A stretch of DNA of 64,000 nt, taken from positions 1-64,000 of the forward strand of contig JBJENE010000014.1 of NCBI GenBank assembly GCA_051880035.1, given 5' to 3'. Below, piece by piece: positions 25,617 through 53,898 of the stretch (position 1 is its first letter; every line of letters starts with the position of its first letter). Below the pieces are notes generated by a model. The model saw only the letters and a list, made by a program, of their open reading frames with translations, searched no databases and was not told the DNA's origin. Both the position numbers and the translations under genes were made by a program. The stretch comes from Butyrivibrio sp. (lineage in GTDB: Bacteria > Bacillota > Clostridia > Lachnospirales > Lachnospiraceae).

Positions 25617-26132
25617 TTAAAGTGGTAATTCGTAATACAGAAAATCAGTCCGGCCGGTATTTTCTGCATAAAGATTCTGCTTTCCCCGATACCGGAACCC
25701 AAGTTTTTCATACATATTCTGAGCCGGAGCGTTTGATGCCAGCGTATCAAGGCGGATTGCTTTCTTTCCTTTTTGGGTTGCCAGAGAAATGATTTCTGCC
25801 ATCATTCTTTTGGATGTACCTTTTCTCTGATATTCAGGGGTTACCGTAAAAATATGTAAGCAAGCCACCTCATCATCTTTCAGATTTTGACTCCATATAA
25901 CCTCATGATAATCCTCCCCCTGATACATTGTAATTGCTGTCATACCTGCAATATTTTGCCCATCCATAAACAAATACATTTCCTGTCCGTCTATATAAGA
26001 TTGTATCATTGCATCTGTAGGATGCTGTCCATAAATCCACCTGGCATGGACATTCATGTCTTTTGTATGCTCAATTACCTCTATATATTTCTCTCTGACA
26101 ATATCAAGATTGCCGGCTAAAACCAATTCCAT
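25617..26132 (-). CDS. GNAT-family N-acetyltransferase
   Basis: 171 aa; acetyl-CoA binding core ...QRKGTSKRMM... and YEKLGF; last gene of the TetR-MFS-APH-ANT-GNAT operon. Confidence 0.7.
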   Translation of the reverse strand: MELVLAGNLDIVREKYIEVIEHTKDMNVHARWIYGQHPTDAMIQSYIDGQEMYLFMDGQNIAGMTAITMYQGEDYHEVIWSQNLKDDEVACLHIFTVTPEYQRKGTSKRMMAEIISLATQKGKKAIRLDTLASNAPAQNMYEKLGFRYRGKQNLYAENTGRTDFLYYELPL

Positions 26133-26151
26133 ACTTTACCACTCTCCCATC

Positions 26152-26952
26152 TTATGCCTTTATCTCACCTACAAGATAGTCGCGCAATTTATTCAGCTCA
26201 CACTCCAAAAGTGTGTGTTCTTCACCTTCAAACCATATTTTCATTGCAAGCTCCGGCAGAAATTTCAAGTCCTCAGGAACATTCTTTATCATCCAGAGAC
26301 CGCCCTCATATTTTGACAATATTCTTTTTTCTTTCTTAAAGGATAAAATTCTTCCCAATATCAAAACATTGCTTGCCAAATATCTTGCATCATAATTATG
26401 AAAGTCATAATCATCAATATCAGCACTGATTGCCGACCAAAAATCCTCATCTGAGACATCCGCAAACACTTCCTGTATTTCTTCTCCATACAGTACTATA
26501 CCGCATTGCTTAATCAGTTTAATATAACTTGTTACATCCGCATCAGGGAATTCGTGGTCCGCCACATATACCTCCGTGTCCGGATTTTGAAATCTGTCCA
26601 GATATTTATCTGTCCAGAAATCGCTATAATGAAATACACAATTCCCCGGTGTTTTCCAATTTTTTGCATCAATCTTTTTCACGGCAGACATCTCAAGGGG
26701 ACGCGGTTTTCTGTCAATTTCTATTATCTCTCTTGCAATTTCAAGCTTCGTTGCCACATGAACAGAGTCCTTCACAACCACAAGTATGTCAATATCTCCT
26801 GAATCAGGATTAAAAGCATTTAGTGCAATTGAGCCGTGAAGATACACTCCGATTAAATCTTCTCCCAGATGTCTTTTCCATATATCCACAACATTGCTAA
26901 TCTGATTCACTATCTCTAATGGTAAATCTTTATATCCAAGTAAATTACTCAC
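26152..26952 (-). CDS. AadA/ANT(9)-like aminoglycoside nucleotidyltransferase family protein (NTase + DUF4111-like C-terminus)
   Basis: GTG start with GGAGG RBS; LIGVYLHGSIALNAFNPDSGDIDILVVV matches the GS-x9-DxD pol-beta NTase motif in the arrangement I recall for AadA/ANT(9); about 266 aa. Confidence 0.55.
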   Translation of the reverse strand: MSNLLGYKDLPLEIVNQISNVVDIWKRHLGEDLIGVYLHGSIALNAFNPDSGDIDILVVVKDSVHVATKLEIAREIIEIDRKPRPLEMSAVKKIDAKNWKTPGNCVFHYSDFWTDKYLDRFQNPDTEVYVADHEFPDADVTSYIKLIKQCGIVLYGEEIQEVFADVSDEDFWSAISADIDDYDFHNYDARYLASNVLILGRILSFKKEKRILSKYEGGLWMIKNVPEDLKFLPELAMKIWFEGEEHTLLECELNKLRDYLVGEIKA

Positions 26953-26985
26953 ACCATACCTCCGTCACCAAATCACACTATATAT

Positions 26986-27960
26986 TTAAAAATTTCCGGT
27001 TTTAAGCTTTTGTACCTCATGTGCAAACTCATCAAGCACCCACTCGTACATGTGAGGATCATCATATTCCCGATAACCGCGCTCCACCACCATTCCTAAT
27101 CGCTGCCAGATACGATATATCTGAATCCGAATCCTCTCGTTCTGTGTAAATTCCGTTTTACCATATCCTTTTAGAAAATTGGGATTGGGTGCATCTCCAA
27201 AATCATGAAAATCATGACTCAGCAAAGGATCTCCCCAAAGAACCGCCGCATAGTCAATCAGCCCTGTTAATTTACCGCAATTAATCATAAGATTACCATC
27301 CCATGTATCGGTATGTGCATACGACGGTATCGTTACTTCATCCAATTCTTTCGCAAATTTCCTAATCAACTTCCGCAGTTCATTCGGTTCAATCCCCGGG
27401 ATTGCAATATTCTTTTCTTCTGCATCCAAAAGAAGCCAGTCAAATATGAAATATACAAAATCACTGTTTTTCTCACAGTAGCTTTCCGGTATATTGGGAA
27501 TGCCAAAAACATCCGCCTCCAACGAACACATTTTATATGTAATATTTCCAATTTTTTCTTTTACTTCTGCCCTTTGACAATCTGTAATGTCCTTATTATG
27601 AGATAATGGTATTCCTTCCAGATAACTCATAAAGAAATACGGCACCGTGCATATTTCGCCACTGTCATCATAAAAGATTAATTTGGGCATTGGAATATCC
27701 AGTTTTTCATTAAAAAGTTTCAGCATTTCTGCTTCTGTCTGAATGTATTTTCTTTCATGGCGCATAATTTTTACATCTGTACCGGAAGCAATCTTTAGCA
27801 CCATTTTCTGCTCCGTGGTTTCCACAAGATACACCGCACTGCAAAAACCTCCGGACATCTTTTCAATCTGGATTACTGTGGTCTTTTTACCCATTGCCCG
27901 GTTTGTCATCTGCCGAATTACATCCTCGGAAATCCAGTTTTTGGTCACTGCATTCATCAT
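26986..27960 (-). CDS. APH/choline-kinase-family small-molecule phosphotransferase
   Basis: Brenner motif HTDTWDGNLMI and downstream IDYAAV...D; start assigned to the MMNAV ATG preceded by GGAGG (alternative upstream ATG at 27987). Confidence 0.65.
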   Translation of the reverse strand: MMNAVTKNWISEDVIRQMTNRAMGKKTTVIQIEKMSGGFCSAVYLVETTEQKMVLKIASGTDVKIMRHERKYIQTEAEMLKLFNEKLDIPMPKLIFYDDSGEICTVPYFFMSYLEGIPLSHNKDITDCQRAEVKEKIGNITYKMCSLEADVFGIPNIPESYCEKNSDFVYFIFDWLLLDAEEKNIAIPGIEPNELRKLIRKFAKELDEVTIPSYAHTDTWDGNLMINCGKLTGLIDYAAVLWGDPLLSHDFHDFGDAPNPNFLKGYGKTEFTQNERIRIQIYRIWQRLGMVVERGYREYDDPHMYEWVLDEFAHEVQKLKTGNF

Positions 27961-28022
27961 TATCGCTACCTCCGCTTCAAGTTTCATTATAGCATTAAGT
28001 ATCAGGAAATTACATACTTGAT

Positions 28023-29246
28023 TTACTGTGATAATTGCCGGATACTTTTTATTCGCAACATTATAACAGCTGTCACAATCAGAGAAACTCCCGAAAAAAT
28101 AATAACAACAGCAGCACCTCTTCCGACAGATGTGTCCAGTATACTGCCCATAAGGTCAGCCAAAATACCACCTGACGCATACGCCAGTACATATCCTATC
28201 TGGGAAAGAAAACCTATAAATCCCCATATTCTTCCCTGCAATTCATCCGGAATATTCGTTCTTACCAGATAATCCAAACAATTGTTGGCAAATGGGAGCA
28301 TTGCAAAAAACAAAAATCCAAATATGCATATAATATAGATATTTTCCCAAATTCCAAAACCAATCATAAATAATCCGCTCATGGCTAATGAAATTACCAG
28401 GGTCTGCACATATTTTTTCTTAATTCCCCGTATTCCAAGCAAAAGACTTGATATCAGCATTCCACACGCACAAACCGTCTCTCCGATTCCCAAAGTTTTT
28501 GAATCCGAAAAAGACAAGATGAGAGGTTCTGCCAATATCTGAAACACGCCCATAAAAAGAGTCATAACCGAGGAAACGATAATTAATAAGAAAACTCCCG
28601 TTTTGCTATGTACTGCGTGCCACCCCTCCCCAATACTGCTAAAAAAAGATTGTTTTGTTTCTACTTTTTTCGTCTGAATTCCTCTTTTTACAACTCCGGT
28701 AGAAATAACTGTTAAAACAAATGTACATATATCAATTACAAGCAGTAGTTTTACATCAAATACACTGAGCAATAATCCGGCCACTATCGGCGAAACCAGA
28801 TATCTGGCACTTCCCGCCAGACTTACTAATCCGTTTGCCTTAGAAAATTCTTCCTTAGTTAACAAATCAGAAACCGTTGCCCTGTAAGAAGGCTCCAGCA
28901 AAGAAGAAAACACAGAGCTTACAAAAACACCTATGCAAATCCGGGTAAGCGTTGCTTTGCCATTCATCATACATATTAAAATGTACAGAATACCAAAAGC
29001 AGAACATCCATCTCCGATCATCATTAAAAGCCTGCGATCATATCGGTCCGCCAATGTTCCTGCCGGCACACTTAACAACAATGTAGGCAAAAATCCTAAC
29101 AATGTGACGAGTGCCATACTTGCTGCACTTCCTGTCTGTCTAAATACATATACCCCTAACCCAAAACCGGTCAGCCCTCCGCCAATTGCGGAAATCAACT
29201 CTCCTGCCCACAGTAATAAAAATTTTCCAAAATTACTTTTTTTCAT
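28023..29246 (-). CDS. MFS efflux transporter
   Basis: 12-TM MFS; start MKKSNFGKF with GGAGA RBS; directly downstream of TetR. Confidence 0.75.
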   Translation of the reverse strand: MKKSNFGKFLLLWAGELISAIGGGLTGFGLGVYVFRQTGSAASMALVTLLGFLPTLLLSVPAGTLADRYDRRLLMMIGDGCSAFGILYILICMMNGKATLTRICIGVFVSSVFSSLLEPSYRATVSDLLTKEEFSKANGLVSLAGSARYLVSPIVAGLLLSVFDVKLLLVIDICTFVLTVISTGVVKRGIQTKKVETKQSFFSSIGEGWHAVHSKTGVFLLIIVSSVMTLFMGVFQILAEPLILSFSDSKTLGIGETVCACGMLISSLLLGIRGIKKKYVQTLVISLAMSGLFMIGFGIWENIYIICIFGFLFFAMLPFANNCLDYLVRTNIPDELQGRIWGFIGFLSQIGYVLAYASGGILADLMGSILDTSVGRGAAVVIIFSGVSLIVTAVIMLRIKSIRQLSQ

Positions 29247-29332
29247 CTTTTTCTCCATTTCCTTTCTACAGACTGACTGTCTGTCGGTTGTATTTAAAAA
29301 TAAAAGAAACTTAAAAGTCTCTTTTATGGCAC

Positions 29333-29959
29333 TTATTTGCAAAATATAGGTTTCATGGCATCCAACAATGCACCTGCTTCCATACCAAGAACCCGCTCCG
29401 TATGATAAACAAATCCCTCAATCTTTCTTTGCTCTTCTTCCTCAATGTACTGCTTCGTACTATCAAAGGTTATGTACGAATATGTCATAATCATATCAAC
29501 CGCTTCTGCCGGATAATCCGTATGCATAATTCCCTGCTTAATTCCATCCTCAACAATCTTTGTAATCAAAATATTTACTCTTCCAAGCAGACGTTCTTCC
29601 AGTTTCTGATGCAACAGTGCATTTTGCGGTTTATGCACCTGTTCCATAATCATATCTCCCAATTCGTTATCCACATTTAAGGATAAGATTGTTCGCGTAA
29701 GCCTTTCCAATACAGGAACCGAATCATCTAATGCAATAACCGCTGCCTTAGAAACAATCTGATTGGTAACCCGCTCAATCATTCCATCCAGAATATCCTC
29801 TTTGGACTTGAAGTGATAATATAATGTTCCCCTGGCAATACCAATTTCGTTCAAAATATCATTCGTGCTGGTCCTATCGAATCCTTTTGTACAAAACAAT
29901 CTTTCAGCAACGTCTAATATTTCATTTCTACGTTCTTCTGCATCTTTAATTACTCTCAT
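29333..29959 (-). CDS. TetR-family transcriptional regulator
   Basis: MRVIKDAEERRNEILDVAERLFCTKGFDRTSTNDILNEIGIARGTLYYHF HTH; GGAGG RBS. Confidence 0.8.
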   Translation of the reverse strand: MRVIKDAEERRNEILDVAERLFCTKGFDRTSTNDILNEIGIARGTLYYHFKSKEDILDGMIERVTNQIVSKAAVIALDDSVPVLERLTRTILSLNVDNELGDMIMEQVHKPQNALLHQKLEERLLGRVNILITKIVEDGIKQGIMHTDYPAEAVDMIMTYSYITFDSTKQYIEEEEQRKIEGFVYHTERVLGMEAGALLDAMKPIFCK

Positions 29960-30145
29960 AGATTCGCCTCCAACCGACAACCTGTCTATACACAATATAT
30001 CATGTGAGTAAAAATAATACAAGACGAAATAATTTCTATAATTGCAAAAATAATACATAATAACCACAAATTAGTGTTGATAATCGTGGTCTTGAGTCAA
30101 TATAACGCACCGTAATTCCCTTTTCCGGTGGAAGGCATACTTGGG

Positions 30146-32534: not shown

Positions 32535-34244
32535 TTATTGAATTTTTATCCTGTTTGCCTTGTATTGAACTGACATATTTATTCCCAAAAAAATCCACAT
32601 ATAAGGTGATACTGTAACCATACTGTCATTAAGCATACTGAATATGCAAAATGCAATTACCGAAACAAATGTTGCATGCAATATCCAATTATCATTTTTC
32701 TTATACTTAAATCTATTTATAATGCATTGCGCCAATATATAAATTACAATTCCACAAAGTGCCAGAGTTCCAAGTATACCAATATCCATGCAGTATTGCA
32801 GAATAATATTATGTGGACGGTTGACAATTACTTTATGTGTTCCATGTATCTTCATAAGACCGACATAATCATACTGGTCATAATTATATATATAATTTCC
32901 CGGTCCTTTTCCAATCAATATTACCTCTTTTAGCTTTGGCAATGTACGAATCCAAATATATCCCCTTCCCGTAAATGCACTATCATATTTGTTATATGTA
33001 TATTCTTCGCTTATACTGTCAATAGGGACAGCATCAACTCCAACGCCTTTAAACTCTCTATTAATAATATAAAAATCAAGAGTATCTTTATATCCAAGTT
33101 CAATCTTCACATACACAGTGCCTGCATTTTCAATAACTGAAAATTCTATTTTCACATTCTTATATGCTTCATCATTAAATACAAACCATCCATCCTCATT
33201 GTTGGCATCCATTATATTATCATCAGAATCATAAAACGCAATATTCTCATTACATACAATCGAAAATTTGCTCTCATTTCCATATATGGTAAGTTTATTT
33301 CCTTCCATATCTATTTTCTTTAATTCATATATGTCATTTACATTTTCTTCAAATGAATCGCCATTTGATGCACTAACATCAATTAATGCTCCAAGTTTTC
33401 CACCGGAAATACCATTTACAACCAATAGAATTACAGACATGGCGACAGCTAATACTATAAGCTCCTTTATTTTGCACTTTATTGTTTTGATTTCACAAAT
33501 CATCATTGCAATAATGATGGCTATTTGCAGATAAAACACAAGTGTTGATTTAGAAACAAGAATGCAAAAAACAATACCTATATTAATCAATATACCTGCA
33601 ATACAACTAATTCTATTCTTTGCATGCAGCCAATACTCAAAAGCAAACGGAAGCAACATACAGCAAAAACAGCCATAATAATTAGAATTATCAAATGTAA
33701 GTTTAACTCTGTTTACACTTTCAAGTTTTTCCCGGTTTCCTATCCACAAGGTGGCAATCGGTATATCAAAAAATTCAATTATTGACATAACTATAATAAC
33801 TGTCATTAAAATAACAACTGTCTTTTTTAATATATCTAAGATTTTATTCATATAGAAATAATTGTATGAAATGAAAAACAACACCAAATAACTTAAAAGT
33901 ACAGCTAAGCTTTCAAACTCTGTATTATAATTTTGAAATTCATTTCCATAATCTGCCGAAAGAACTTGTGACAGAACCGCACATATTACAAATATTGCCG
34001 CCATAATCCATAAAGCTTTGTTCTTATCCCTTAATGGATTGTTTTTAATAATATTATCGGGAAAGATGTTTTCGCCTATAAACCAAGACAGACAGAATAC
34101 TGCCATCAGCATCACCATTTTTTCCTTAATATGTATATCAGGAATTAATGGGTAAATAAGTATAAATATACATATACTGTATGGCACTACATATTTGTAT
34201 TTGGGCATTTCGTCTGATAATTTTACTTTTTTATGTTTTTTCAT
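32535..34244 (-). CDS. O-antigen ligase/polymerase-like (Wzy_C-type) membrane protein with about 200-aa inserted extracytoplasmic domain
   Basis: N-terminal TM block, large soluble insert, then RGYIW...GKGPGNY...PHNIILQYCMDIGILG, resembling the ligase GxGxGxF / HN..L....G motifs; very AT-rich gene. Confidence 0.5.
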   Translation of the reverse strand: MKKHKKVKLSDEMPKYKYVVPYSICIFILIYPLIPDIHIKEKMVMLMAVFCLSWFIGENIFPDNIIKNNPLRDKNKALWIMAAIFVICAVLSQVLSADYGNEFQNYNTEFESLAVLLSYLVLFFISYNYFYMNKILDILKKTVVILMTVIIVMSIIEFFDIPIATLWIGNREKLESVNRVKLTFDNSNYYGCFCCMLLPFAFEYWLHAKNRISCIAGILINIGIVFCILVSKSTLVFYLQIAIIIAMMICEIKTIKCKIKELIVLAVAMSVILLVVNGISGGKLGALIDVSASNGDSFEENVNDIYELKKIDMEGNKLTIYGNESKFSIVCNENIAFYDSDDNIMDANNEDGWFVFNDEAYKNVKIEFSVIENAGTVYVKIELGYKDTLDFYIINREFKGVGVDAVPIDSISEEYTYNKYDSAFTGRGYIWIRTLPKLKEVILIGKGPGNYIYNYDQYDYVGLMKIHGTHKVIVNRPHNIILQYCMDIGILGTLALCGIVIYILAQCIINRFKYKKNDNWILHATFVSVIAFCIFSMLNDSMVTVSPYMWIFLGINMSVQYKANRIKIQ

Positions 34245-34356: not shown

Positions 34357-36462
34357 TTATTCAGTTACTTTTTTCTTAGTTGCAACGACTGCAAATGCAC
34401 CAATCATTGTAAACATTGCAATGATACAAATAGCAATATTTGAATTGTAACCGGCTGCAGGGTCATCGTCTGACGGTTTATTGTCTGCCGGTTTATTATC
34501 TGCAGTAAACAGACTATCGCTGATTATGATTGCATACTCTGATGCATGTGTAAACTTAAATCCTGCTGTACCATCTTCAGCTATCTTTACACCTTCAATA
34601 AACTCCAAAGCACCTGTTTCCGGATTATAATAAAAGAGATTTGCATATTTACCGCTATTTTCTGTTCCAAGATTCAGCTTAAACTCTGCTTTAAATCCAA
34701 AATCACCTGTATGTTCAATTGAAAGTTCAACTACTGTTCCTTCAAGTTTAACTTTTTCAATTGCTGTCTGCGGAATAACACCTTCTACCATATCTACAGT
34801 TAAATCAATAACTTCAGGTATTGTTCCCGTAATGTCACTTCCCTTAATTGTCCAGCTTGCCCCACCTTCTGATTTAATAACAAGAGTCACATTCTTTTCT
34901 TTTACTGCCACAAGAACGTCTTTTGTAATAACTATATTTTCAACGCCGGCATCAATTTCAACCGTTCCGTTCTCTTCAGCTGTTTCGATTTGTGAACATA
35001 TCCGCTCACTTAATGTTGATTCTTTTATTGTTGATTTTCTTATTGCTCCGTACAAGCGTCCATCGTCTGTATATGCATATGTAATAAAAACCCCTGTTTC
35101 TTCTATATAATCACAAATTATTTTTTCTGTACTTAAAATTACTTTTCCTTCAGAATCACGTACTACTGACCCTTCTTCATTATTAAAAATTAACCAATCA
35201 TCACCTATATATACATTATCTGTGTCAAGCAATTCTGCTTTATCAAGTGAATAGTCATCATCCTTATTTAATGCATAATAACACTTTACTCTGTCCTCTC
35301 CCCCGTTAGTCCAGTAGCTAAGATATATATATACCCTATTTGCATCTGCTGCAAATGGATATACCCATAAACCGTCTCCTTCACCCAATTCTAACAAAGT
35401 ATTAAAATATTCACGCAGTTGGGCGTACGTATAAATTGCATTTCCATCTTTAGAATAAATTCCGCCTTCACCATCTTCATATACAAAATCTATATCATCA
35501 TTTCCGTCTGACATATTCGATTCTTCTACAATAGGTGTACACTCTTCTTCTGAAACTTCTTCCAAAGTATCATATGATAGTAAATACTTATCGTTTTCGT
35601 ATCCTCCATGATACACTACTTCTACCTCAAAAGCTTCCTCATAATCAGGATTTATATTAATATAATATCCTGAGTTTTCAACATTTATGTTTTTTTCTTT
35701 CTTATTAAGATCAGAATCTATACAGATAATGGTATTGCCTTTTATGAGCAATAAATAATCACCTAAGATATCAACCTCATAATCAAAAAGACCTCCAAGT
35801 ATAATTTTATCTTTCTCATTAAATTCATGGTCAAACAGAATCAAATCACTTGTAAAATCCATATGTCCACGTTTAATACAATAATTTCCGCCAAATTCTG
35901 CACAAATTCCCCAAAAATATTCTATATTTTCTATAACATCTTCTTTAACAATTTTTTCTTCCTTGTCGATAACATTATATTTGGTGCCATCATTTACAAG
36001 ATAATAATTATTATCAAATTGATCTACATATGTATATCTGTTATCGCCATCACCTATCCATGTAAGATCTTCTGACATAATCGCTTCTGAACCATCTTCA
36101 CGAAGACATTCCATGTACTTGATAAAATCGTCACCTGAGACATTATAATAACCGGTATATCTAACATACTTTACAGTTCCGTCAGAATTTTTATTACTGA
36201 TTTCCGTAATATTACCTTTGCTGTCAATGATTGAAATACTGTCTTCTGCTGTGAGTCTTTCATCTCCCCTTTCTGTAGCCATGACAACAGAACCATTACT
36301 AAACTTATAATAATACTTATACTCATTCTCCAAAAGTACCTCAACATTGTCTTCCGGTTCATCAGCAGCATATATAACAGGACTTGAAATAAAACTTCCT
36401 GCTGCAATAATTAGTGCAACTGCAGCTGCCAATGCTTTTTTAATACTTCTACGCATCTTCAT
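34357..36462 (-). CDS. large secreted protein with C-terminal TM anchor (cell-surface protein, unknown function)
   Basis: Signal peptide ...AAVALIIAAGSFISSPVIYAADE; C-terminal IAICIIAMFTMIGAFAVVATKKK; no enzymatic motifs seen. Confidence 0.5.
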   Translation of the reverse strand: MKMRRSIKKALAAAVALIIAAGSFISSPVIYAADEPEDNVEVLLENEYKYYYKFSNGSVVMATERGDERLTAEDSISIIDSKGNITEISNKNSDGTVKYVRYTGYYNVSGDDFIKYMECLREDGSEAIMSEDLTWIGDGDNRYTYVDQFDNNYYLVNDGTKYNVIDKEEKIVKEDVIENIEYFWGICAEFGGNYCIKRGHMDFTSDLILFDHEFNEKDKIILGGLFDYEVDILGDYLLLIKGNTIICIDSDLNKKEKNINVENSGYYININPDYEEAFEVEVVYHGGYENDKYLLSYDTLEEVSEEECTPIVEESNMSDGNDDIDFVYEDGEGGIYSKDGNAIYTYAQLREYFNTLLELGEGDGLWVYPFAADANRVYIYLSYWTNGGEDRVKCYYALNKDDDYSLDKAELLDTDNVYIGDDWLIFNNEEGSVVRDSEGKVILSTEKIICDYIEETGVFITYAYTDDGRLYGAIRKSTIKESTLSERICSQIETAEENGTVEIDAGVENIVITKDVLVAVKEKNVTLVIKSEGGASWTIKGSDITGTIPEVIDLTVDMVEGVIPQTAIEKVKLEGTVVELSIEHTGDFGFKAEFKLNLGTENSGKYANLFYYNPETGALEFIEGVKIAEDGTAGFKFTHASEYAIIISDSLFTADNKPADNKPSDDDPAAGYNSNIAICIIAMFTMIGAFAVVATKKKVTE

Positions 36463-36636: not shown

Positions 36637-37440
36637 TCACCCCTCCACAATCCTCTCAACAATTTTCTTCACACAATTTATATCCAATGGCATACTGTAA
36701 GTTTCATATGTTACAAACAACTTATCTCCCTGTAAAATACCGTTGGTTGAATACAGATTCATTTTCTTCACAAAATCGACCGAGTATTTCGGCTCATCCA
36801 TACGCCCTGCGTGTTCATAATAATAGATTCGACCGGTGTGCTTATTAATTATCGTAAAATCAGGATGCACAATAATATTACATCCGTCCTTTGTTTTCAA
36901 TTCCAACGGTCTCTCATACTTATATTCAATATCATCCTTATATTGATACAGAACATTTGCAATTATCAGTTCCGACTTGGATCTGACCTTCTCCCCCTGA
37001 TTTGTTTCATAAATCAGATTCTCTTTAAATCCAGTATACGGTTCATATTCCTCTCTGTCCCACGCCTCTAATTTTTCTTTTACACCAATAGCGACAGGTT
37101 CTACCAGTGCTTTTCGTTCATCCGGCAGATTTCTAAAGATTTCCTCAACAGCTTCTTCATTATATTTTTGTACAAACTCCTGAAGCAAAGCTATCTGGCT
37201 TTTCAGCACTGCGGCTACGGTTATCAGATATCCCTTCTCCGCCAATTCAATTGCAAGACTCATCTGATTTTTCTTAATATATGTTGTGCTCCACTGTTGC
37301 GTCGTCGGCTCCTTTTCCTGCCGATAGTAGTATAATCTTCCTTTCTTTCTCTGATACTTCAATATACCTTCTGAGGCATCTGCAATGAATTTCTCGGTCT
37401 TTTCCAATATCAGCGTTTTCTCCTCTATCTGCTTTCTCAT
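36637..37440 (-). CDS. hypothetical protein with putative C-terminal PD-(D/E)xK nuclease-like (Vsr/DUF559-type) domain
   Basis: C-terminal ...IIVHPDFTIINKHTGRIYYYEHAG resembles the aDFy...lvIEvDG core of Vsr/DUF559. The start is uncertain: the ATG at 37440 is 20 nt from a perfect AAAGGAGG, and a TTG at 37473 is in frame. Confidence 0.35.
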   Translation of the reverse strand: MRKQIEEKTLILEKTEKFIADASEGILKYQRKKGRLYYYRQEKEPTTQQWSTTYIKKNQMSLAIELAEKGYLITVAAVLKSQIALLQEFVQKYNEEAVEEIFRNLPDERKALVEPVAIGVKEKLEAWDREEYEPYTGFKENLIYETNQGEKVRSKSELIIANVLYQYKDDIEYKYERPLELKTKDGCNIIVHPDFTIINKHTGRIYYYEHAGRMDEPKYSVDFVKKMNLYSTNGILQGDKLFVTYETYSMPLDINCVKKIVERIVEG

Positions 37441-37791
37441 TTCTTCTATCGTGACACATTCCTCCTTTAACAATAGTTCTACTAAACAGGTATCGACTAC
37501 GCATTTTTAGCAGAAAATATGACCTCTGATTAAGGCATTTTCTACATAAACGCAGACTCCGACCTAATTTAGCAGAGATTTTTCTCATTTTATTTGATAA
37601 ATTTGGGGATTTGAAGATTTTTTTCTACCTCGGCACGTGGTTTTCGGCATTTTTAGAAGAATTACCGGTCGAAATCGGGTCTTTTTTCTGTCCATTGACT
37701 TGATATAGCCATGTTTTAGTAGAAATCAAGTTTCCCATCAGGACTTTGCTCCATAAAAGGATAGAAATTAGATATGAATGAATCATTAATG

Positions 37792-40570: not shown

Positions 40571-42403
40571 TTACTCCATGAAAAGCCACTTTTCAACTTT
40601 TCCCAGATTGATTTTTTCTTTACCGTTTCCCGATACTTCCCATAATACGGAATCGCTGTCCGTAAAATAGTATTTTCCGCGGGAAAATGCGGCTCTTTCC
40701 ACGCTGCCGAAATCAGATATTAAAACTTTTTCTTTTGAAGACAGCTTCTTAATACGGCAGAGGTTTCCGTTTCTTATATACATCAATCCGTTAAAATTTT
40801 CACATTCCACGATTCCGGTAACCTGCTCCGCAATTGTTTCCTTTTTATCAGTGATTTTAAAAAGGACATTATTATCGTCAATTCCTATGTAGCAATTTTC
40901 ATTATCCATGTAATATATGCCGCTATTTTCCGAAAGTCCGGAAACTTCTTCGCTTTTACCCGAAAATCCGGCTCTGTACAGGGTGTTTCCTATAACATAA
41001 ACCACATATGAATCCCCGTCATGATAATATATTTCCGGCGTTGTCCTGTCGGAGGAGAAAAGGAAAGTGTTTTCCCCGTTATTCCGGGCAAGATAGTATC
41101 CGTTTTCTTTTTCATATAAAAGAGACGAATTACCCGTAAGAGAGTTGGCAGTTATCTCCAGAACATTGCTGTCCACCAAAACCTGTTTTGTCAGATTATT
41201 GCCGTCAGCCATGAATAACCTGCCTTCTTCGGTCAGATAATAAAGAGTATCCGATTGGGCAAAATATTCGGTACTTTCCACTTCTTCCGCTATCGTTACG
41301 GATTCTTCATTATCTCCGGAAATATTATTCATCATCAGGGTTTTGTTATTAACAATACCGTATCTGGCAGTTTCCATGTCCAGATATACAAGTTTTCCGT
41401 CTTCATCTATGAATACAATTTCTTTTTCCTGATTGTCTTTTGAGAAAACATTCGTTTCTCCGGCTTCATTTCCGCAGTACATTGTATACACATCATTATC
41501 ATCAATATTGTCATATGCGGTCAGAACAAAATATTTTCCGTTGTCACTTACCGCACAGGCGTCGGTAAAGCCTGCGTGGCTGTCTGTCGGAATAGAAACT
41601 GTTTCGCCGGACGAAATAATTTTGGGTGTATTCCCGTCCAGATAAAGCACCTGATTGAAATCCTTGCTGCAGCTAAGAATTACCGGTGACTCGGCAGGAT
41701 AGTTAACGCATTTTCCGTCAGTGTATATAAATATGCCGCTCTCTCCGGATGCAATAAATCCCCGGGAATTGGAATCATATACAGAAAATTCTCCGGCTGT
41801 CTCAAGCACCGCCTTTTGGGTGTCCGTTGCCATATATCCTTTATTACCGTCAAAAAAGAATATATTACTCCTGTCAATGTTTTTAACTATATTCACGGGA
41901 ATAATTACACCGGCTGCAATGACTGCTGCTGCGGCAAGACCTATTGCCGGCCATTTTAAACGGTTTTTGTATATTTTATGGCTTAATACAAGTTTGGATG
42001 TATCCAGGGTATCCAAAGAATCGTCGAATTTAAGTTCCCTGATTACCGGATTATCCCTGCCTCTTTTGGGGCGGTGTTTTTTAATAAAACCGGATAATTT
42101 ATTCCATAACTTCAATGCATAATCTTTTATTACAGCCAAAGAAAGGCCCGCCGTCTCCGGCCCGCCTTCATCTTTGTAGGTCACACTGCGGTCCCTGCCG
42201 TTTTTGGCATCATACTCTTCCCTTGTGGAATGCATGATACCCGGTGGCAGCATGCCGTCAGTCATGCCCTGTTTCTGTGCTTCCTCCCATTCTTTTCTCC
42301 GTCTTAAGTAATCCTCGTTGACGAATACTACTCTGGCTCCGCACTTAGGGCATACCGACCTGCTATTATGTTCAAATCCACATTTGTCACATTTCATAGA
42401 CAA
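40571..42403 (-). CDS. membrane protein: N-terminal cytoplasmic zinc ribbon, single TM, large extracytoplasmic repeat/propeller-like domain (DUF5050-like?)
   Basis: CDKCGF...CPKCG ribbon; TM WPAIGLAAAAVIAAGVIIPV; C-terminal about 450 aa rich in Y/G/N/D repeats; 7-nt gap after glyQS. Confidence 0.45.
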   Translation of the reverse strand: MSMKCDKCGFEHNSRSVCPKCGARVVFVNEDYLRRRKEWEEAQKQGMTDGMLPPGIMHSTREEYDAKNGRDRSVTYKDEGGPETAGLSLAVIKDYALKLWNKLSGFIKKHRPKRGRDNPVIRELKFDDSLDTLDTSKLVLSHKIYKNRLKWPAIGLAAAAVIAAGVIIPVNIVKNIDRSNIFFFDGNKGYMATDTQKAVLETAGEFSVYDSNSRGFIASGESGIFIYTDGKCVNYPAESPVILSCSKDFNQVLYLDGNTPKIISSGETVSIPTDSHAGFTDACAVSDNGKYFVLTAYDNIDDNDVYTMYCGNEAGETNVFSKDNQEKEIVFIDEDGKLVYLDMETARYGIVNNKTLMMNNISGDNEESVTIAEEVESTEYFAQSDTLYYLTEEGRLFMADGNNLTKQVLVDSNVLEITANSLTGNSSLLYEKENGYYLARNNGENTFLFSSDRTTPEIYYHDGDSYVVYVIGNTLYRAGFSGKSEEVSGLSENSGIYYMDNENCYIGIDDNNVLFKITDKKETIAEQVTGIVECENFNGLMYIRNGNLCRIKKLSSKEKVLISDFGSVERAAFSRGKYYFTDSDSVLWEVSGNGKEKINLGKVEKWLFME

Positions 42404-48557: not shown

Positions 48558-49319
48558 TCACCCTTTTTTAAGTATAGGTCTTAACGGATGATAAATAAGC
48601 ATTGTGACTAAGGATACGGAAAAACCTTTTAAAAGATTAAGCGGAGCAACACACATAATCACAAGGGAAGTAACACTGTTTACATTTTTGTTAACGGCTG
48701 TTCCCATTGCAATAATTGTTTCCATCGGCATTCCGTAAAGCTCTGAAAATTTAGGTAAAAGATATATTGCATTGAAGCTTGTTCCTGCAAGAACAAGGAC
48801 AATCGTTCCCACAATGCATCCTATCAATGCTGTTTTCTTTGACTTCTTTATATGGTAAATAATTGTAGCCGGCAAAATAAAAGCACATCCCACAACGAAG
48901 TTGGCAAGTTCTCCTACAAAAGCTGTAGAGCTTCCCTTAAGCAGAAGCTTTATTATTATTTTAACAGCCTCGCAAAGAACGCCTGCTACCGGACCGTATG
49001 CAAATCCACAGATAAGCACCGGAATCTCACTGAAGTCCAGCTTATAAAATGACGGTACAAAAGGAAGCGGAATTTCAAACAGCATCAATATTCCCGCCAG
49101 TGCAGCCAAAACACCTGTAACGGCAATTTTTCTTGTGGAAAGAATTTTTTCGGCAGGTGCAGTACCGGTCTGCTTCCTTTCTTTTCTTCTGATAAGAAGT
49201 TCGGCAACATATGCAACCAGAATAATTCCCAGGACAATTCCCAGAAATTCAAGCAGGAATATGGTATTATCCTTTACCGCATCCCATAATTTTGTAAAAT
49301 GTGATAAAAACTTGTTCAT
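48558..49319 (-). CDS. ribU: ECF-transporter substrate-specific (S) component, riboflavin type
   Basis: Small 5-6 TM protein typical of ECF S components; preceded by an FMN riboswitch, which assigns the substrate. Confidence 0.65.
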   Translation of the reverse strand: MNKFLSHFTKLWDAVKDNTIFLLEFLGIVLGIILVAYVAELLIRRKERKQTGTAPAEKILSTRKIAVTGVLAALAGILMLFEIPLPFVPSFYKLDFSEIPVLICGFAYGPVAGVLCEAVKIIIKLLLKGSSTAFVGELANFVVGCAFILPATIIYHIKKSKKTALIGCIVGTIVLVLAGTSFNAIYLLPKFSELYGMPMETIIAMGTAVNKNVNSVTSLVIMCVAPLNLLKGFSVSLVTMLIYHPLRPILKKG

Positions 49320-49515: not shown

Positions 49516-49571
49516 AAAGTACATGTCCATATATACCCTGTGCCTCAACTAAAGCACAAAGTCATTAATGT

Positions 49572-49680
49572 CATCTTCTTCCATCCAGACTATACTGTCG
49601 GTACCGGAGTCTCACCGGTTCATGCTTAACGCTCGCGGACTATACCGCCGATTGGGAATTGCACCCTGCCCTGAAGATAT
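49572..49680 (-). ncRNA. FMN riboswitch (RFN element) aptamer
   Basis: Minus strand ...TCTTCAGGGCAGGGTGCAATTCCCAATCGGCGGTATAGTCCGCGAGCG...AACCGGTGAGACTCCGGTACCGACAGTATAGTCTGGATGGAAGAAGATGA matches conserved RFN segments (GGGCAGGGTGAAATTCCC, CGGCGGTA, CCGACAGT...GTCTGGATG) with P1 TCTTC/GAAGA. Confidence 0.85.
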
Positions 49681-49740
49681 TTCGTTATTTTTCATCACGG
49701 TATTATAATAGTGCCATTAATCATGTATGTCAATACTAAT

Positions 49741-50469
49741 TTACTCCAAAAGGCTGTCATTAAGTATATTAATATAATTTTCATACATCATCACTCTGCA
49801 TCTTTCTTCGCCGCAAAGCTTCTGTAATGCCGTCTCCGCCTTATTTAACAGTCCGGTATCCATATTGGTTTTATCCGTACTTATAAGATGAATGCATTTC
49901 CCAAGTATAAGGCTTTCAATGAATCTCTGTTTGGACTTGGAAAGCTTATGGGGCATTGCGGATATGTTCATAAGAAAATACGCGCCATATTCCATGAGTT
50001 CTTTAACATCATCCGTATCTCTCATGCTGTCATACATAAAAATATTCTCTATGATAACTCTGTATCCCCTTTTGAAGGCTTCCTCCACACCATCCCTTAT
50101 GAATCTCACGGACGCATCCTGCTCAAACTCCAGCAACACATATCTGCTGTTCCCAATCGTAATTACAGGCTCATCATTGCCTGATGAAAAAACTCCTCTG
50201 TAATACCGCACTCTGCTGCCGGTATATACTGTGGCACCGGGATACCTTTGCTTCAAAAGTTCCGCTGTTTCTTTGGCCGCTTTAACCCGTCTTAAGTTAT
50301 GCTGTCTGCCGTCCTGATAATAAAACTGTGGTGTAAGAATAAAAATCCTTACACCGCTTTCATACATCATATTGCCGGCATACATTATACCGGCATTATT
50401 TCCGGCTCCGTCTATATATTTATTGTTCTGAAAATTCAAAAAGCTTCCGTAACTCCATAAATCACTCAT
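49741..50469 (-). CDS. CpsB/YwqE-like PHP-family tyrosine-phosphatase homolog with substituted metal-binding histidines (predicted pseudo-enzyme)
   Basis: MSDLWSYGSF aligns with CpsB MIDIHSHIVF (H to W, H to Y). RYVLLEFE matches RYALIEFS, and KCIHLISTDKTN matches LVHVVASDMHNL (H to T). The start codon lies 1 nt after the stop of the upstream GGDEF gene. Confidence 0.5.
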   Translation of the reverse strand: MSDLWSYGSFLNFQNNKYIDGAGNNAGIMYAGNMMYESGVRIFILTPQFYYQDGRQHNLRRVKAAKETAELLKQRYPGATVYTGSRVRYYRGVFSSGNDEPVITIGNSRYVLLEFEQDASVRFIRDGVEEAFKRGYRVIIENIFMYDSMRDTDDVKELMEYGAYFLMNISAMPHKLSKSKQRFIESLILGKCIHLISTDKTNMDTGLLNKAETALQKLCGEERCRVMMYENYINILNDSLLE

Positions 50470-50470
50470 A

Positions 50471-52429
50471 TCATGCCAACCATTCTTTTTCAAATTCATC
50501 CCGGGAAAGTAATCTGTCAGGGTAAATCAGCAAATCACACGGGCTGTCTTTATCATCACTGCACAATAAGAATCCCATTTCTTTCTTAATATCGGACAGG
50601 CCTTTAACAACCGCTGTACCCAGTGTACCTTTTTTCTTCAGGAATTCATCGGAAACCGTAACCACAGAGGCTTTGTATACCGATATCCGTTCGAGTGACA
50701 TATCACCTTTTCCGAAATCATCCAAAGCCACACCGATTCCGTGTACCCTCAGAACATCCAGAGTAGATACCGCCTTATCCACATCCCTGAGTACGGTAGT
50801 TTCCGAAATGTTTAAAAATATATTTCCGGAATCCGCTCTGTTTTCTCTGATTGTATCAAGACATTTTGAAACCGGATTCCCTGCAATAAGCTGTACGGCA
50901 TATACCGGGATAAGCATTTTAAGATTTTCGTCATACTCCGAATTCCACGATGAAAGTATCTTACATGATTCATCAAGAACATAATCCCCAACAATTCCGG
51001 CTACTCCAAGGTTTTCAACTGCATCTGAAAACTCATCCGGTTCTATATCCGAATCCGGGTCAGAAAGGGACACCGATACTTTCACGGCAGAAAGCCTGTT
51101 GTTAACATCCACAACAGGAAGAAAACAAAGCTTAAGTCCACCGCAGTCACCTGAAACGGCATTTTTAACGGCAGCCTCAACATAGTTCATCCGTCTGTTT
51201 CTGTCGTTTTCATCGTCAGAATACCATAAATACCTGTTTTTGCCGCCTTTTTTGGCCTGATACATTGCATAATCTGCTTTTTTCAAAACATCATGCACAT
51301 GGGAACCGCAGTCAGGGAAAACAGCAAGACCCATACTCATTGTACAGTAATATTCCGTTCCCAGTATCATCCAAGGTTCTCCGAATCTTTTACTTATATT
51401 ATCAACAATTCCCGAAATATTTTGAAAATATTCCGGTCTGATAATTATTACAAATTCATCGCCACCCATTCTGTAGCAGCAGTTACTGATTTCAGGTATG
51501 GCTGACAACGCTCCTGCAATCTCCTGCAGAAGTACATCCCCGTACTGATGTCCCAATCCGTCATTAACCTGTTTAAAATCATCCAGGTCGAGAAAAATAA
51601 GTGCACCACGCTCTTTATTACATACGGCTTTTTCAATAACCTCTTTAACATCCCTCTCACACTTCATTCTGTTAAACAGACCCGTCAGATAATCATTATT
51701 GGCCTGATATTCTATTCTCTGCTGGTTTTTAACCTTCTGCGTAACATCGATTACGGTACACAGAAGTACCTCCCTGCCGTCGATCCAGTTAAGTCCGGTA
51801 AACTGCACATCAAACCACAATCCCGTCTCAGTATCATATATTTCATACAGATTTCTGCTTCCGGTTTCAATATATTTAATAAGGGCCGTTCCCATGGCAT
51901 TCTGCATTGCCACAGACTCCGCTCCCAGCCTGTTTAGCATAAGGACATTTTTTTCTTTCCGGTCAAGAACGGCAACCCCTGAAGGTATTTCATCAAGAAT
52001 CACCCCAAGAAGCTTAAGAGAATTTTCCATGGAATCCTCAAAATTTTTTCTGGATGCAATACTCTGAATAATGAGAGTAATTGTCTCCAATGCTTTTTTC
52101 TGTTCTTCGCTGCATTCCTTTGAACCGAAAAAGGCACACACATACATGGCTGCCTCATTCCTGATTACTACCGGAAACGCCAAAATATTATTCTGCTCCA
52201 GAGATTTTTTGGATGTATCTTCTCCTTCCGGAAAAAACTCTGCATTCGCATCGGTAGTCTCAGATATGATAACTTTCAATGTGTCGGAATCCGGGTATGA
52301 CTGCATCAGGTACAGACTGTCAGTTCCCAAATCAGCCATCATATCTTTAAAGATATTTCTGGCTATTGTAACAAAGTCTTCGTCATATACCAGATATTTA
52401 ACTAATTGTGACATACCAAATTCGTACAT
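50471..52429 (-). CDS. diguanylate cyclase (sensor domains + GGDEF) with degenerate EAL-like C-terminal domain
   Basis: Intact RMGGDEF; the C-terminal about 250 aa has EAL-domain landmarks (DDFGKG) but no EAL motif. Confidence 0.75.
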   Translation of the reverse strand: MYEFGMSQLVKYLVYDEDFVTIARNIFKDMMADLGTDSLYLMQSYPDSDTLKVIISETTDANAEFFPEGEDTSKKSLEQNNILAFPVVIRNEAAMYVCAFFGSKECSEEQKKALETITLIIQSIASRKNFEDSMENSLKLLGVILDEIPSGVAVLDRKEKNVLMLNRLGAESVAMQNAMGTALIKYIETGSRNLYEIYDTETGLWFDVQFTGLNWIDGREVLLCTVIDVTQKVKNQQRIEYQANNDYLTGLFNRMKCERDVKEVIEKAVCNKERGALIFLDLDDFKQVNDGLGHQYGDVLLQEIAGALSAIPEISNCCYRMGGDEFVIIIRPEYFQNISGIVDNISKRFGEPWMILGTEYYCTMSMGLAVFPDCGSHVHDVLKKADYAMYQAKKGGKNRYLWYSDDENDRNRRMNYVEAAVKNAVSGDCGGLKLCFLPVVDVNNRLSAVKVSVSLSDPDSDIEPDEFSDAVENLGVAGIVGDYVLDESCKILSSWNSEYDENLKMLIPVYAVQLIAGNPVSKCLDTIRENRADSGNIFLNISETTVLRDVDKAVSTLDVLRVHGIGVALDDFGKGDMSLERISVYKASVVTVSDEFLKKKGTLGTAVVKGLSDIKKEMGFLLCSDDKDSPCDLLIYPDRLLSRDEFEKEWLA

Positions 52430-52443
52430 GTAAACCGCCCCGT

Positions 52444-53898
52444 TTATTTTTCGATAACAAAAATATAATGTTCTTCTTTATCTTTCAGCACCAGTTCTTT
52501 AAGAAGCTTCCACTCTTCATCAAGACGCAGATTTTTTCTGACAAGATTCTTTTTATCTGAATATAAAATCATTCTTCCGTTTTTCTTAAGAAGCTTTTTG
52601 GCACTGTCAAAAAATTTCGTATAAAAATCATCAGCTTCAGTTCCTGCAAAATCAGGCATATTGGTTATTATTTCATCAAAAAGATGCTTACTCGTAAAAT
52701 CAAAAAAATTACGATTGACAAAATTAATATTTACGCCTGCAAGGCCGGCATTTTCCCTTCCGCCCTCAACTGCCTTTCCAAATGTGTCCACTCCGTACAT
52801 ATGCCCGGCTTTAACAACCCGGTTTCTTTCAATAAGCATGGTTCCCACACCACAGCAGGGATCAAGAACCGTAGCATCCTTCTTAAGGTAATCCTTTACA
52901 AGAGCAGTAATGACAGCCGCATTAACCGGATTTATGGATGCAGCCACATAATTTTTCCTGTATCGGAATCTTGTATCATCAAAGGTATGCAGTTTTACAA
53001 AAACCCCATACCTGTCATTTGCGGCAGCAATAAGTTTCAATTCTATCTCATAATCGGATGGGGAATTAACAAGCCTTCCTCCGGAAAGTGCCTGTATTCT
53101 TGATGCAATATCTCCTGTATCCGGATTATTTGCTGTAACCCTGAAATAAAAAGGGCTGTCATTCTTTCCATGAAGCATATCAAGAACAGACATAAGATTT
53201 CCCTCAGCTACAGCCTTTGGAAGTTCTGCTTTGGTATAACTTTTCATTCCGTTAACCGGAAAAAGCATTTCTCTGTAATACCGTATATCCGATAAAGCTC
53301 TGATATCTTTTGTTACTGTCATCACACCGCAGAAAACCTTACGGACATCCTTACAAACCGCTCTTTTATCTATCTCTTTACATAAAAGTTCCGTAACTTC
53401 TTCCCTTGCAGCAAGAATAACCCTTACCGGAACAGCCGGATTAACCGCAGTATGTCTCTTTCTTTGAGTTTCATCATCAAGCATTCCACAGAGAACTTTC
53501 AATTCTTCAGCTATATGTTTTACATCTCCGGAATCAAAATCACCGCTCTCGATATACTTTTTGCGTTCGGATAAATACTCCTTATACGCGTCATATGGAT
53601 AATTCTTAAGAGCTTTAAGGTATGCACTCCTTACAAAAAGAGTTTCTTCTTTACAATATGCTTTAAAAAGTATATCGCCATACTCCTCTTCGCCCAAAAT
53701 GCCCATTATCAGTGCCGCATTTTTACGGACCTTAGGGTCCTCATTTTCAAGCAAAAACGGGAATAAGGAAGCCTGATACAGAGGTTCCTTTTTGAGAACC
53801 TCTTTGTTATCCGCTTCCTGTAATAATTCCTTTATTTTAATCAAATTGGCACGCACATTGACATGCTGCGTCAATTCATTAAGGTTTTGTTCAAACAT
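52444..53898 (-). CDS. class I SAM-dependent methyltransferase (UPF0020/RlmL-like N6-adenine-type) with THUMP-like and N-terminal HEAT-like regions
   Basis: LDPCCGVGTMLIE (motif I) and ITNMPDF (motif IV-like NPPY variant); N-terminal KVRKNAALIMGILGEEEYG HEAT-like repeats. Confidence 0.5.
   Translation of the reverse strand: MFEQNLNELTQHVNVRANLIKIKELLQEADNKEVLKKEPLYQASLFPFLLENEDPKVRKNAALIMGILGEEEYGDILFKAYCKEETLFVRSAYLKALKNYPYDAYKEYLSERKKYIESGDFDSGDVKHIAEELKVLCGMLDDETQRKRHTAVNPAVPVRVILAAREEVTELLCKEIDKRAVCKDVRKVFCGVMTVTKDIRALSDIRYYREMLFPVNGMKSYTKAELPKAVAEGNLMSVLDMLHGKNDSPFYFRVTANNPDTGDIASRIQALSGGRLVNSPSDYEIELKLIAAANDRYGVFVKLHTFDDTRFRYRKNYVAASINPVNAAVITALVKDYLKKDATVLDPCCGVGTMLIERNRVVKAGHMYGVDTFGKAVEGGRENAGLAGVNINFVNRNFFDFTSKHLFDEIITNMPDFAGTEADDFYTKFFDSAKKLLKKNGRMILYSDKKNLVRKNLRLDEEWKLLKELVLKDKEEHYIFVIEK

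Follow-up and report, generated by a model that had tools for sequence, protein, structure and literature searches.

A catalytically dead CpsB/YwqE-type PHP protein encoded directly behind a GGDEF-EAL gene in Butyrivibrio-like genomes

What is left for a homologue of a bacterial tyrosine phosphatase to do once its metal-binding histidines are gone and its gene lies one base behind that of a cyclic di-GMP (c-di-GMP) signalling protein? The question is raised by two neighbouring genes in a 64,000-nucleotide stretch of Butyrivibrio sp. DNA (assembly GCA_051880035.1, contig JBJENE010000014.1, positions 1 to 64,000), hereafter the window. The second gene of the pair encodes a protein here called pCpsB. 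I find that pCpsB is a genuine relative of the CpsB/YwqE phosphatases, that to judge from its residues it no longer has their metal site, and that it is kept by selection as a pseudoenzyme. My tentative answer, which I hold at somewhat short of an even chance, is that it acts as a non-catalytic accessory subunit of the adjacent GGDEF-EAL cyclase. The pair is laid out as follows.

49741 to 50469, reverse strand: pCpsB gene, coding for a 242-residue CpsB/YwqE-type PHP protein, apparently catalytically dead (a pseudo-phosphatase)
50471 to 52429, reverse strand: GGDEF-EAL gene, coding for a 652-residue cytoplasmic signalling protein with an uncharacterised region (residues 1-240), then a GGDEF domain, then an EAL-like domain
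50467 to 50473, reverse strand: junction TGA-T-ATG between the two genes, read directly from the sequence

The sequence-only reading from which this analysis started had aligned the 242-residue protein over its whole length with the CpsB/YwqE family, and profile alignment shows that the similarity is not spurious. pCpsB matches Pfam PF19567 (CpsB_CapC) with an E-value of 2e-27 and 96.6 bits, against a cutoff of 27, from profile position 15 to 233 of 234, and two of the short matches first noticed in the sequence (RYVLLEFE with RYALIEFS, and IHLISTDKTN with VHVIASDMHN) recur in the HMMER alignment. Canonical family members score 217-267 bits on the same profile. The NCBIfam equivalog model for Cps4B has a cutoff of 400 and gives pCpsB 53.7 bits, which makes it a relative of Cps4B and not an equivalog. 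Among PDB sequences, it matches Cps4B at an E-value of about 2e-9 and YwqE at 1e-7. An AlphaFold2 model built from a 91-sequence alignment has a mean predicted local distance difference test score (pLDDT) of 92.1 and a predicted template-modelling (TM) score of 0.90, and supersedes a single-sequence run that gave a pLDDT of 47. The nearest PDB neighbours of this model in Foldseek are Cps4B (TM score 0.80) and YwqE (TM score 0.75), well above other amidohydrolase and PHP barrels; the best entries, 2wjd, 3qy8 and 3qy6, have E-values of 1e-14 to 1e-11 and TM scores of 0.72-0.80. The predicted fold is thus the distorted (beta/alpha)7 barrel of PHP proteins. pCpsB is a genuine CpsB/YwqE-type PHP homologue, far beyond chance.

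Can such a homologue still be a phosphatase? In Cps4B, metal M1 is bound by H5, H7, E80 and D199, M2 by E80, E108 and H136, and M3 by D14, H42 and H201, and R139 and R206 join the three metals in binding the phosphate (PMC2777267). When this ligand list is mapped onto the 242-residue numbering of pCpsB, three of the nine metal ligands are kept (D14 as D20, E108 as E114, and D199 as D199). The other six, comprising all five ligand histidines and the bridging Glu80, are replaced: H5 by L11, H7 by F13, H42 by Q48, E80 by R86, H136 by N142, and H201 by T201. Both phosphate-binding, catalytic arginines are replaced as well, R139 by M145 and R206 by G206. These positions are otherwise nearly fixed. 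In a set of 152 related sequences, made up of the query, P0001 and the 150 top-ranking representatives that an exhaustive HMMER search retrieved from 1.84 billion cluster representatives, each ligand is conserved in 139-148, and the exceptions are essentially the pCpsB clade. Single Cps4B mutations already cripple the enzyme, R139A retaining 5% of activity and single mutants of several histidine ligands 1-20% (PMC2777267). Since pCpsB lacks six of the nine ligands and both arginines, catalysis is excluded as far as the residues can tell: pCpsB is not a phosphatase, its trinuclear metal site is destroyed, and Mn-dependent phosphotyrosine phosphatase activity is predicted to be absent.

The loss of the signature histidines had been recognised by the sequence-only reading, and it stands on either N-terminal register. 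The register proposed there, MSDLWSYGSF against MIDIHSHIVF, which sets H5 and H7 opposite W5 and Y7, is probably shifted by six residues, as both a MAFFT alignment and the first strand of the AlphaFold model (residues 7-12) place H5 and H7 opposite L11 and F13 and leave MSDLW as a 6-residue N-terminal extension. A search for histidines elsewhere in the protein that might restore the site found three in all (residues 57, 174 and 194), none of them within the first 56 residues and none a conserved substitute. Across the eight lineages of the subfamily described below, no conserved His, Cys, Asp or Glu takes the place of a lost ligand.

This has a practical consequence for annotation. A protein identical to pCpsB, with the same 242-residue start, is deposited at NCBI as MGN0369457.1, from a Butyrivibrio sp. 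metagenome-assembled genome (MAG), under the name 'CpsB/CapC family capsule biosynthesis tyrosine phosphatase', which is functionally wrong given the ligand losses. Profile-based name transfer will mislabel the whole clade in the same way and inflate the inferred tyrosine-phosphorylation capacity of rumen and gut Lachnospiraceae.

Is pCpsB then simply a gene in decay? The ratio of nonsynonymous to synonymous substitution rates (dN/dS) is 0.097 at a dS of 1.2 in comparison with a 79%-identical orthologue and 0.136 at a dS of 0.09 in comparison with a 97%-identical one, the same level as in the adjacent GGDEF-EAL gene (0.12). Eight lineages make up the subfamily (window/P0001, P0002, P0003, P0004, P0005, P0006, P0009 and L010), at 20-48% identity to one another, and all eight have a full-length open reading frame (ORF) in which most or all ligands are lost, with substitutions that differ from lineage to lineage. 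Because dN/dS lies at 0.10-0.14 and the frames are intact in eight lineages down to 20% identity, pCpsB is not a decaying gene; with its ligands lost and purifying selection acting on it, it is a selected pseudoenzyme. Its distribution is narrow. The exhaustive HMMER search returned only this small degenerate clade, found in Butyrivibrio-like MAGs, and the pCpsB protein, run against GTDB genomes, gave no match.

Beside this clade stands P0130, a 477-residue protein with an independent and partly degenerate CpsB domain, in which HxH is missing, H42 is replaced by K, E80 by R and H201 by K, and H136 and D199 are kept. The domain is fused to an N-terminal signal or transmembrane segment and a long acidic Thr/Glu-rich region, which suggests a second, membrane-anchored pseudo-CpsB lineage.

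What selection has preserved in pCpsB lies away from the old catalytic centre, above all in two places.

50455 to 50469, reverse strand: N-terminal extension M-x-[DE]-x-W, whose W5 is invariant throughout the eight lineages and is lacking in canonical CpsB
50287 to 50325, reverse strand: signature [FY]-x-Y-x-x-G-x-x-x-N-x-x-R (residues 49-61), after strand 2 and behind the lost H42 position (Q48)

W5 lies ahead of the predicted first strand. In the signature, F49, Y51, G54, N58 and R61 are conserved in seven or eight of the eight subfamily members and differ from the canonical consensus at those columns; further subfamily invariants are Y76, G92, F123, R137 and I140. The former active-site positions vary freely within the subfamily, which argues against a conserved ligand pocket there. 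One could suppose that these residues build a new active site, and that pCpsB is an enzyme with new chemistry, either metal-independent or working at a relocated site. Barrels of the TIM type often evolve new activities, and both the strong purifying selection and the polar residues that only this subfamily conserves (Y51, N58, R61 and R137) would fit. I consider this very improbable: the invariant set is mostly aromatic residues, glycine and arginine, it includes no acid, His, Cys, Ser or Lys that might serve as nucleophile or general acid-base, and the subfamily is highly divergent, with a mean identity of 30%.

A non-catalytic role points to the neighbouring gene. The stop codon of the GGDEF-EAL gene (TGA, 50473-50471) is separated by a single base (50470) from the ATG of pCpsB (50469-50467), whose gene ends at 49741. 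A longer ORF of 252 residues could start at an ATG at 50499; the 242-residue start is conserved across all relatives as M-x-[DE]-x-W. The arrangement suggests that pCpsB is co-transcribed with the GGDEF-EAL gene and co-translated with it. In the window the spacer is one base and the Shine-Dalgarno sequence ahead of pCpsB is weak, so pCpsB is probably translationally coupled to the GGDEF-EAL gene and made by termination-reinitiation. The transcription unit seems to end just beyond.

49569 to 49733, reverse strand: downstream boundary of the unit, formed by a promoter-like site and the flavin mononucleotide (FMN) riboswitch of the next gene (ribU-like, 48558-49319)

The promoter-like site (49733-49705) reads TTGACA-17-TATTAT, near consensus with 11 of 12 matches, and the FMN riboswitch (49569-49682, reverse strand; Rfam RF00050, 112 bits) precedes a gene for a ribU-like S-component of an energy-coupling factor (ECF) transporter. 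With these two elements just downstream, pCpsB is taken to be the last gene of its unit. A terminator-like hairpin at 49515-49488, after the riboswitch, is consistent with an expression platform. Upstream, the neighbouring gene (52444-53898, reverse strand) is that of an RMKL-like (UPF0020) methyltransferase whose N-terminal region is HEAT-like; the gene stops 14 nucleotides before the GGDEF-EAL start and itself overlaps the stop of an Na/Pi-cotransporter-PhoU gene by one common base (53898).

How general is this linkage? The subfamily alignment is too divergent to yield search patterns, and loci were therefore sought from the GGDEF-EAL side instead. Of the 12 loci that this returned for GTDB genomes eight are orthologous, and in metagenomes 61 loci matched. 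Every subfamily member with a readable contig directly follows a gene of the same GGDEF-EAL orthogroup, in eight lineages and among about 15 billion proteins; pCpsB begins 1, 1, 4, 9, 9, 30, 2 and -8 nucleotides after the GGDEF-EAL stop. The upstream order is constant in related loci (amidase_2, Na/Pi-PhoU, methyltransferase, GGDEF-EAL). The gene downstream of pCpsB varies (ribU, a PALP enzyme, MarR/ABC, an Mbeg1-like gene or Fe-ADH), and the pair therefore survives rearrangement on that side. The pairing that had been noticed in the window alone is thus conserved in all eight lineages.

The linkage does not run both ways. Among loci newly found from the GGDEF-EAL side, only L010 has pCpsB. 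Syntenic GGDEF-EAL orthologues without it occur in L012, L014 and L032, where the stop is followed 57-87 nucleotides on by the FMN riboswitch, and L011 has the same pCpsB-less junction to the ribU side but a different upstream gene. The intervals from GGDEF-EAL stop to riboswitch, in the coordinates of each locus, are these.

L012, 7941 to 8028: no pCpsB
L014, 7510 to 7588: no pCpsB
L032, 5878 to 5935: no pCpsB
L011, 3501 to 3587: no pCpsB

A tblastn search of the pCpsB-negative loci found no remnants of pCpsB. An ORF of 249 residues directly behind the GGDEF-EAL gene in loci from the human gut (L021 and others) was considered as a diverged pCpsB and rejected, being a FabG-like short-chain dehydrogenase. 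Conversely, pCpsB without the GGDEF-EAL gene was never found among the same 15 billion or so proteins. An orthologue that occurs without pCpsB, and never the converse, is the pattern expected of an accessory modulator.

The reading that I favour follows these observations. In it, pCpsB is a paralogue of the CpsB/YwqE tyrosine phosphatases of Lachnospiraceae exopolysaccharide (EPS) loci that retained the distorted-barrel fold while both the trinuclear metal centre and the two phosphate-binding arginines disappeared. The move away from the Wzz and BY-kinase (bacterial tyrosine kinase) loci in which its two closest canonical relatives lie speaks for a new role as well. pCpsB would bind the GGDEF-EAL protein, either modulating its diguanylate cyclase output or linking the cyclase to a target, and might do so through a new surface made up of the invariant N-terminal Trp and the loop motif between strand 2 and helix 2. 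The physical interaction and the direction of regulation I infer from gene linkage. A regulatory partnership had also been the proposal of the sequence-only reading: the homologue is indeed dead, selected and conserved in its linkage, and the partner role itself keeps the standing of a deduction from gene order.

Several observations weigh against a functional pair. Synteny in these genomes extends all the way from IMPDH to GlyRS, which means that plain vertical inheritance accounts for some of the adjacency signal. The GGDEF-EAL orthologue does without pCpsB in several lineages, and pCpsB is the fastest-evolving gene of the block. Its pairwise identities correlate with those of the GGDEF-EAL domains at 0.34-0.51, against r=0.68 with the unrelated methyltransferase, and the GGDEF-EAL positions specific to pCpsB-positive lineages are N136 and H377 only, from which no interface can be proposed. 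The AlphaFold2 alignment, moreover, is dominated by canonical CpsB sequences, and the model leans toward that fold. Could pCpsB then have a function unrelated to the GGDEF-EAL protein, its position being inherited synteny within a narrow Butyrivibrio-like clade? The broadly syntenic flanks, an orthologue that works without pCpsB and the lack of any co-evolution signal in the comparisons above are all compatible with this. I nevertheless regard it as improbable, as the junctions stay within -8 to +30 nucleotides in all eight lineages, the pair outlasts downstream rearrangements and no other context for pCpsB turned up in the protein search. A search for Rosetta-stone fusions among long CpsB-domain proteins gave no informative second domain.

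If pCpsB is an accessory subunit, what would it be accessory to? The partner matches Pfam GGDEF at 128 bits and EAL at 72 bits, and its best PDB match is the GGDEF-EAL region of MorA (E=1e-44); residues 1-240 match no Pfam family and no PDB sequence.

51233 to 51703, reverse strand: GGDEF domain (residues 243-399), with RMGGDEF (residues 320-326) intact at 51452-51472
50561 to 51142, reverse strand: degenerate EAL-like domain (residues 430-623), its motif changes read from the MorA alignment and the motif table

The RMGGDEF motif was reported as intact from the start, and the domain around it bears this out: D281, N289, D298, K393 and R399, which correspond to Mg/GTP-binding residues of PleD and WspR, are invariant among orthologues. 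The window partner's GGDEF domain is apparently that of an active cyclase. The RxxD inhibitory site (I-site) is absent from the partner, which has EISN there, and from all orthologues examined, so that feedback inhibition by the product seems to be missing from the entire orthogroup. Across orthologues the GGDEF domain is 60-89% identical and the EAL region of the same proteins 22-35%, or 67% for the closest (L001).

The EAL-like domain in the window is degenerate: EAL has become KVS, R has become S, N has become P, the first E of ExxE has become N (leaving N..E) and K has become T, and DDFG is kept. In this respect the sequence-only description of a motif-less EAL is correct for the window and does not extend to the pair in general, since L084 and L086 pair pCpsB with an intact EAL domain. 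Intact EAL motifs are found in the orthologues L084, L086, L009, L011, L014 and L021, and the degenerate domain of the window protein evolves fast (25-27% identity, against 41-52% for the intact EAL domains of equally distant orthologues). Initial sampling had shown a perfect association between pCpsB and a degenerate EAL, and wider sampling broke it. As a rule, then, pCpsB neither makes up for EAL decay nor goes with it, given the intact EAL with pCpsB in L084 and L086 and the degenerate EAL without it in L012 and L032. Nor is there support for a monophyletic EAL-degenerate clade, which received 15 of 100 bootstraps in a tree built without the EAL region. A C-terminal truncation of the EAL domain is disfavoured, as the EFEKEWL end looks normal by eye and similar ends occur in EAL-intact orthologues. 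In L084 (5948-7998, the P0006 lineage), the GGDEF-EAL orthologue is called as two ORFs of 292 and 385 residues, with EAL motifs intact; a frameshift, incipient pseudogenisation or an assembly error may explain the split.

An apparently active cyclase without an I-site, encoded in the same operon, raises the thought that pCpsB is itself a nucleotide receptor or effector that binds the c-di-GMP (or pGpG or GTP) made by its neighbour and relays the signal to a target. Dead enzymes reused as c-di-GMP receptors are well established, as in the degenerate EAL and GGDEF domains of LapD, FimX and PelD, and the subfamily conserves W5, Y51, N58, R61 and R137, whose residue types (Trp, Tyr, Asn and Arg) are the usual contacts of guanine and phosphate. 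Against this, pCpsB has no known c-di-GMP binding motif, the residues of the former active-site pocket are freely variable, literature searches gave no PHP-fold c-di-GMP receptor, and in two lineages the protein paired with pCpsB has an intact EAL domain and is probably an active phosphodiesterase. I would assign such a receptor role little probability.

A different origin for a signalling role would be the pathway from which the family comes. The two closest canonical relatives of pCpsB, with all ligands intact, lie in classical loci where the CpsB gene is immediately followed by genes for Wzz and a BY-kinase, and one of the two loci has a Bac_transf gene and a glycosyltransferase further along. 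BY-kinases and c-di-GMP both control exopolysaccharide production, and eukaryotic pseudophosphatases act as traps for phosphorylated substrates. It could therefore be argued that pCpsB still belongs to the BY-kinase pathway as a pseudo-phosphatase, docking on a CpsC/CpsD-type tyrosine kinase encoded elsewhere in the genome, or on the substrates of that kinase, and thereby connecting c-di-GMP signalling with EPS synthesis, an idea that revives the phosphotyrosine-peptide binding suggested by the sequence-only reading. pCpsB is, on the other side, never found in an EPS locus, and neither the 64-kb window nor any of the related loci contains a Wzz, BY-kinase, AAA_31 or CbiA gene. Moreover, all elements that hold the phosphate in Cps4B, namely the three metals, Arg139 and Arg206, are gone (PMC2777267). 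Because every phosphate-contacting element is missing, phosphotyrosine binding by pCpsB is unlikely, and I hold the pathway as a whole to be a distinctly improbable setting for it.

Thus, it seems that an accessory subunit of the cyclase is at present the best candidate for the function of pCpsB. Literature searches returned no description of a catalytically dead CpsB/YwqE-family member and none of a PHP protein in c-di-GMP signalling. What is new here is best filed as a pseudoenzyme branch of the known CpsB/YwqE family in a new, conserved genomic partnership. A bolder version would make the dead PHP barrel an unrecognised component of c-di-GMP signalling, either as a pseudo-phosphoesterase subunit that gates the cyclase or as the first PHP-fold cyclic-dinucleotide receptor, arrived at through the capture of a tyrosine phosphatase from an EPS locus; I think this unlikely, although, if true, it could be the evolutionary link that joins the control of the Lachnospiraceae cell surface by BY-kinases to its control by c-di-GMP. 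With only two genes, the pair makes a compact system in which to study how second-messenger signalling recruits a pseudoenzyme, and natural controls exist in the form of orthologues with and without pCpsB and with intact and dead EAL domains. Given the narrow clade, its impact is limited unless the interaction is demonstrated.

The window also contains a second c-di-GMP protein of 903 residues (22789-25500, reverse strand), with a LacI-type sugar-binding domain resembling periplasmic binding proteins, a weak GGDEF match (36.8 bits) and a strong EAL match of 155 bits; by its domains it is probably a ligand-regulated phosphodiesterase. Three ORFs of 701, 278 and 610 residues (34357-36462, 36637-37473 and 40571-42403, all on the reverse strand) match no Pfam family at E<=1e-5. 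The 701-residue ORF adjoins a gene for a Wzy_C-containing protein of 569 residues (32535-34244), and the 610-residue ORF adjoins glyS, with a Pfam-less gene of 577 residues at the same place in related loci such as L006. A resistance-type cluster at 25617-30067 (reverse strand) comprises a GNAT acetyltransferase, an AadA-like nucleotidyltransferase, an APH-family phosphotransferase, an MFS transporter and a TetR regulator.

How does pCpsB compare with systems already known? Its nearest counterparts are the Mn-dependent phosphatases CpsB (Cps4B, Streptococcus pneumoniae), YwqE (PtpZ, Bacillus subtilis) and CapC, with which it shares a length of about 240 residues, the predicted fold and the motifs G-[IV]-R, T-P, Y-x-L-x-E-F, G-Y-x-P-I-I and G-A-Y. 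It differs from them in its 6-residue N-terminal extension with an invariant Trp and in the new loop motif after strand 2, and, unlike them, it is never encoded beside Wzz and BY-kinase genes and always after a GGDEF-EAL gene. Among partner-type proteins, the EAL-like domain in the window resembles those of LapD, FimX and CsrD, as it keeps the fold signature (72 bits, DDFG) without the catalytic residues. It departs from that set in that the GGDEF domain is intact and that the Arg of EALxR, which contacts c-di-GMP, is lost (R to S), and because of this loss a c-di-GMP receptor function for the EAL-like domain looks doubtful.

Three systems offer precedents for the proposed role. In Escherichia coli, the epsilon proofreader docks on the PHP domain of DNA polymerase III alpha. 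This domain has five of its nine ligands altered and no exonuclease activity (PMC5636811), and so sets the precedent that a dead PHP module can be a protein-docking surface; unlike pCpsB, it is a domain within a polymerase, belongs to another PHP subfamily and has no link to c-di-GMP. On the partner side, E. coli DgcE, a cyclase that combines GGDEF with a degenerate EAL, is controlled by the partner proteins RdcA and RdcB (PMC6510439). DgcE differs in sitting in the membrane (MASE1) and in having as partners a dynamin-like GTPase plus an accessory protein, neither of them a dead phosphatase; the corresponding interaction of pCpsB is a proposed one. Lastly, TpbA of Pseudomonas aeruginosa is an active periplasmic dual-specificity Cys-based phosphatase with a fold unrelated to that of pCpsB, and pCpsB, unlike TpbA, cannot be expected to dephosphorylate anything. 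The diguanylate cyclase TpbB (YfiN) is listed in a table as a substrate of TpbA (PMC3412661), and the likeness lies in a tyrosine phosphatase being functionally tied to a cyclase that controls exopolysaccharide and biofilm. Taken together, the precedents of Pol III alpha, DgcE with RdcA and RdcB, and TpbA with TpbB make it plausible that pCpsB is an accessory subunit of its neighbouring cyclase.

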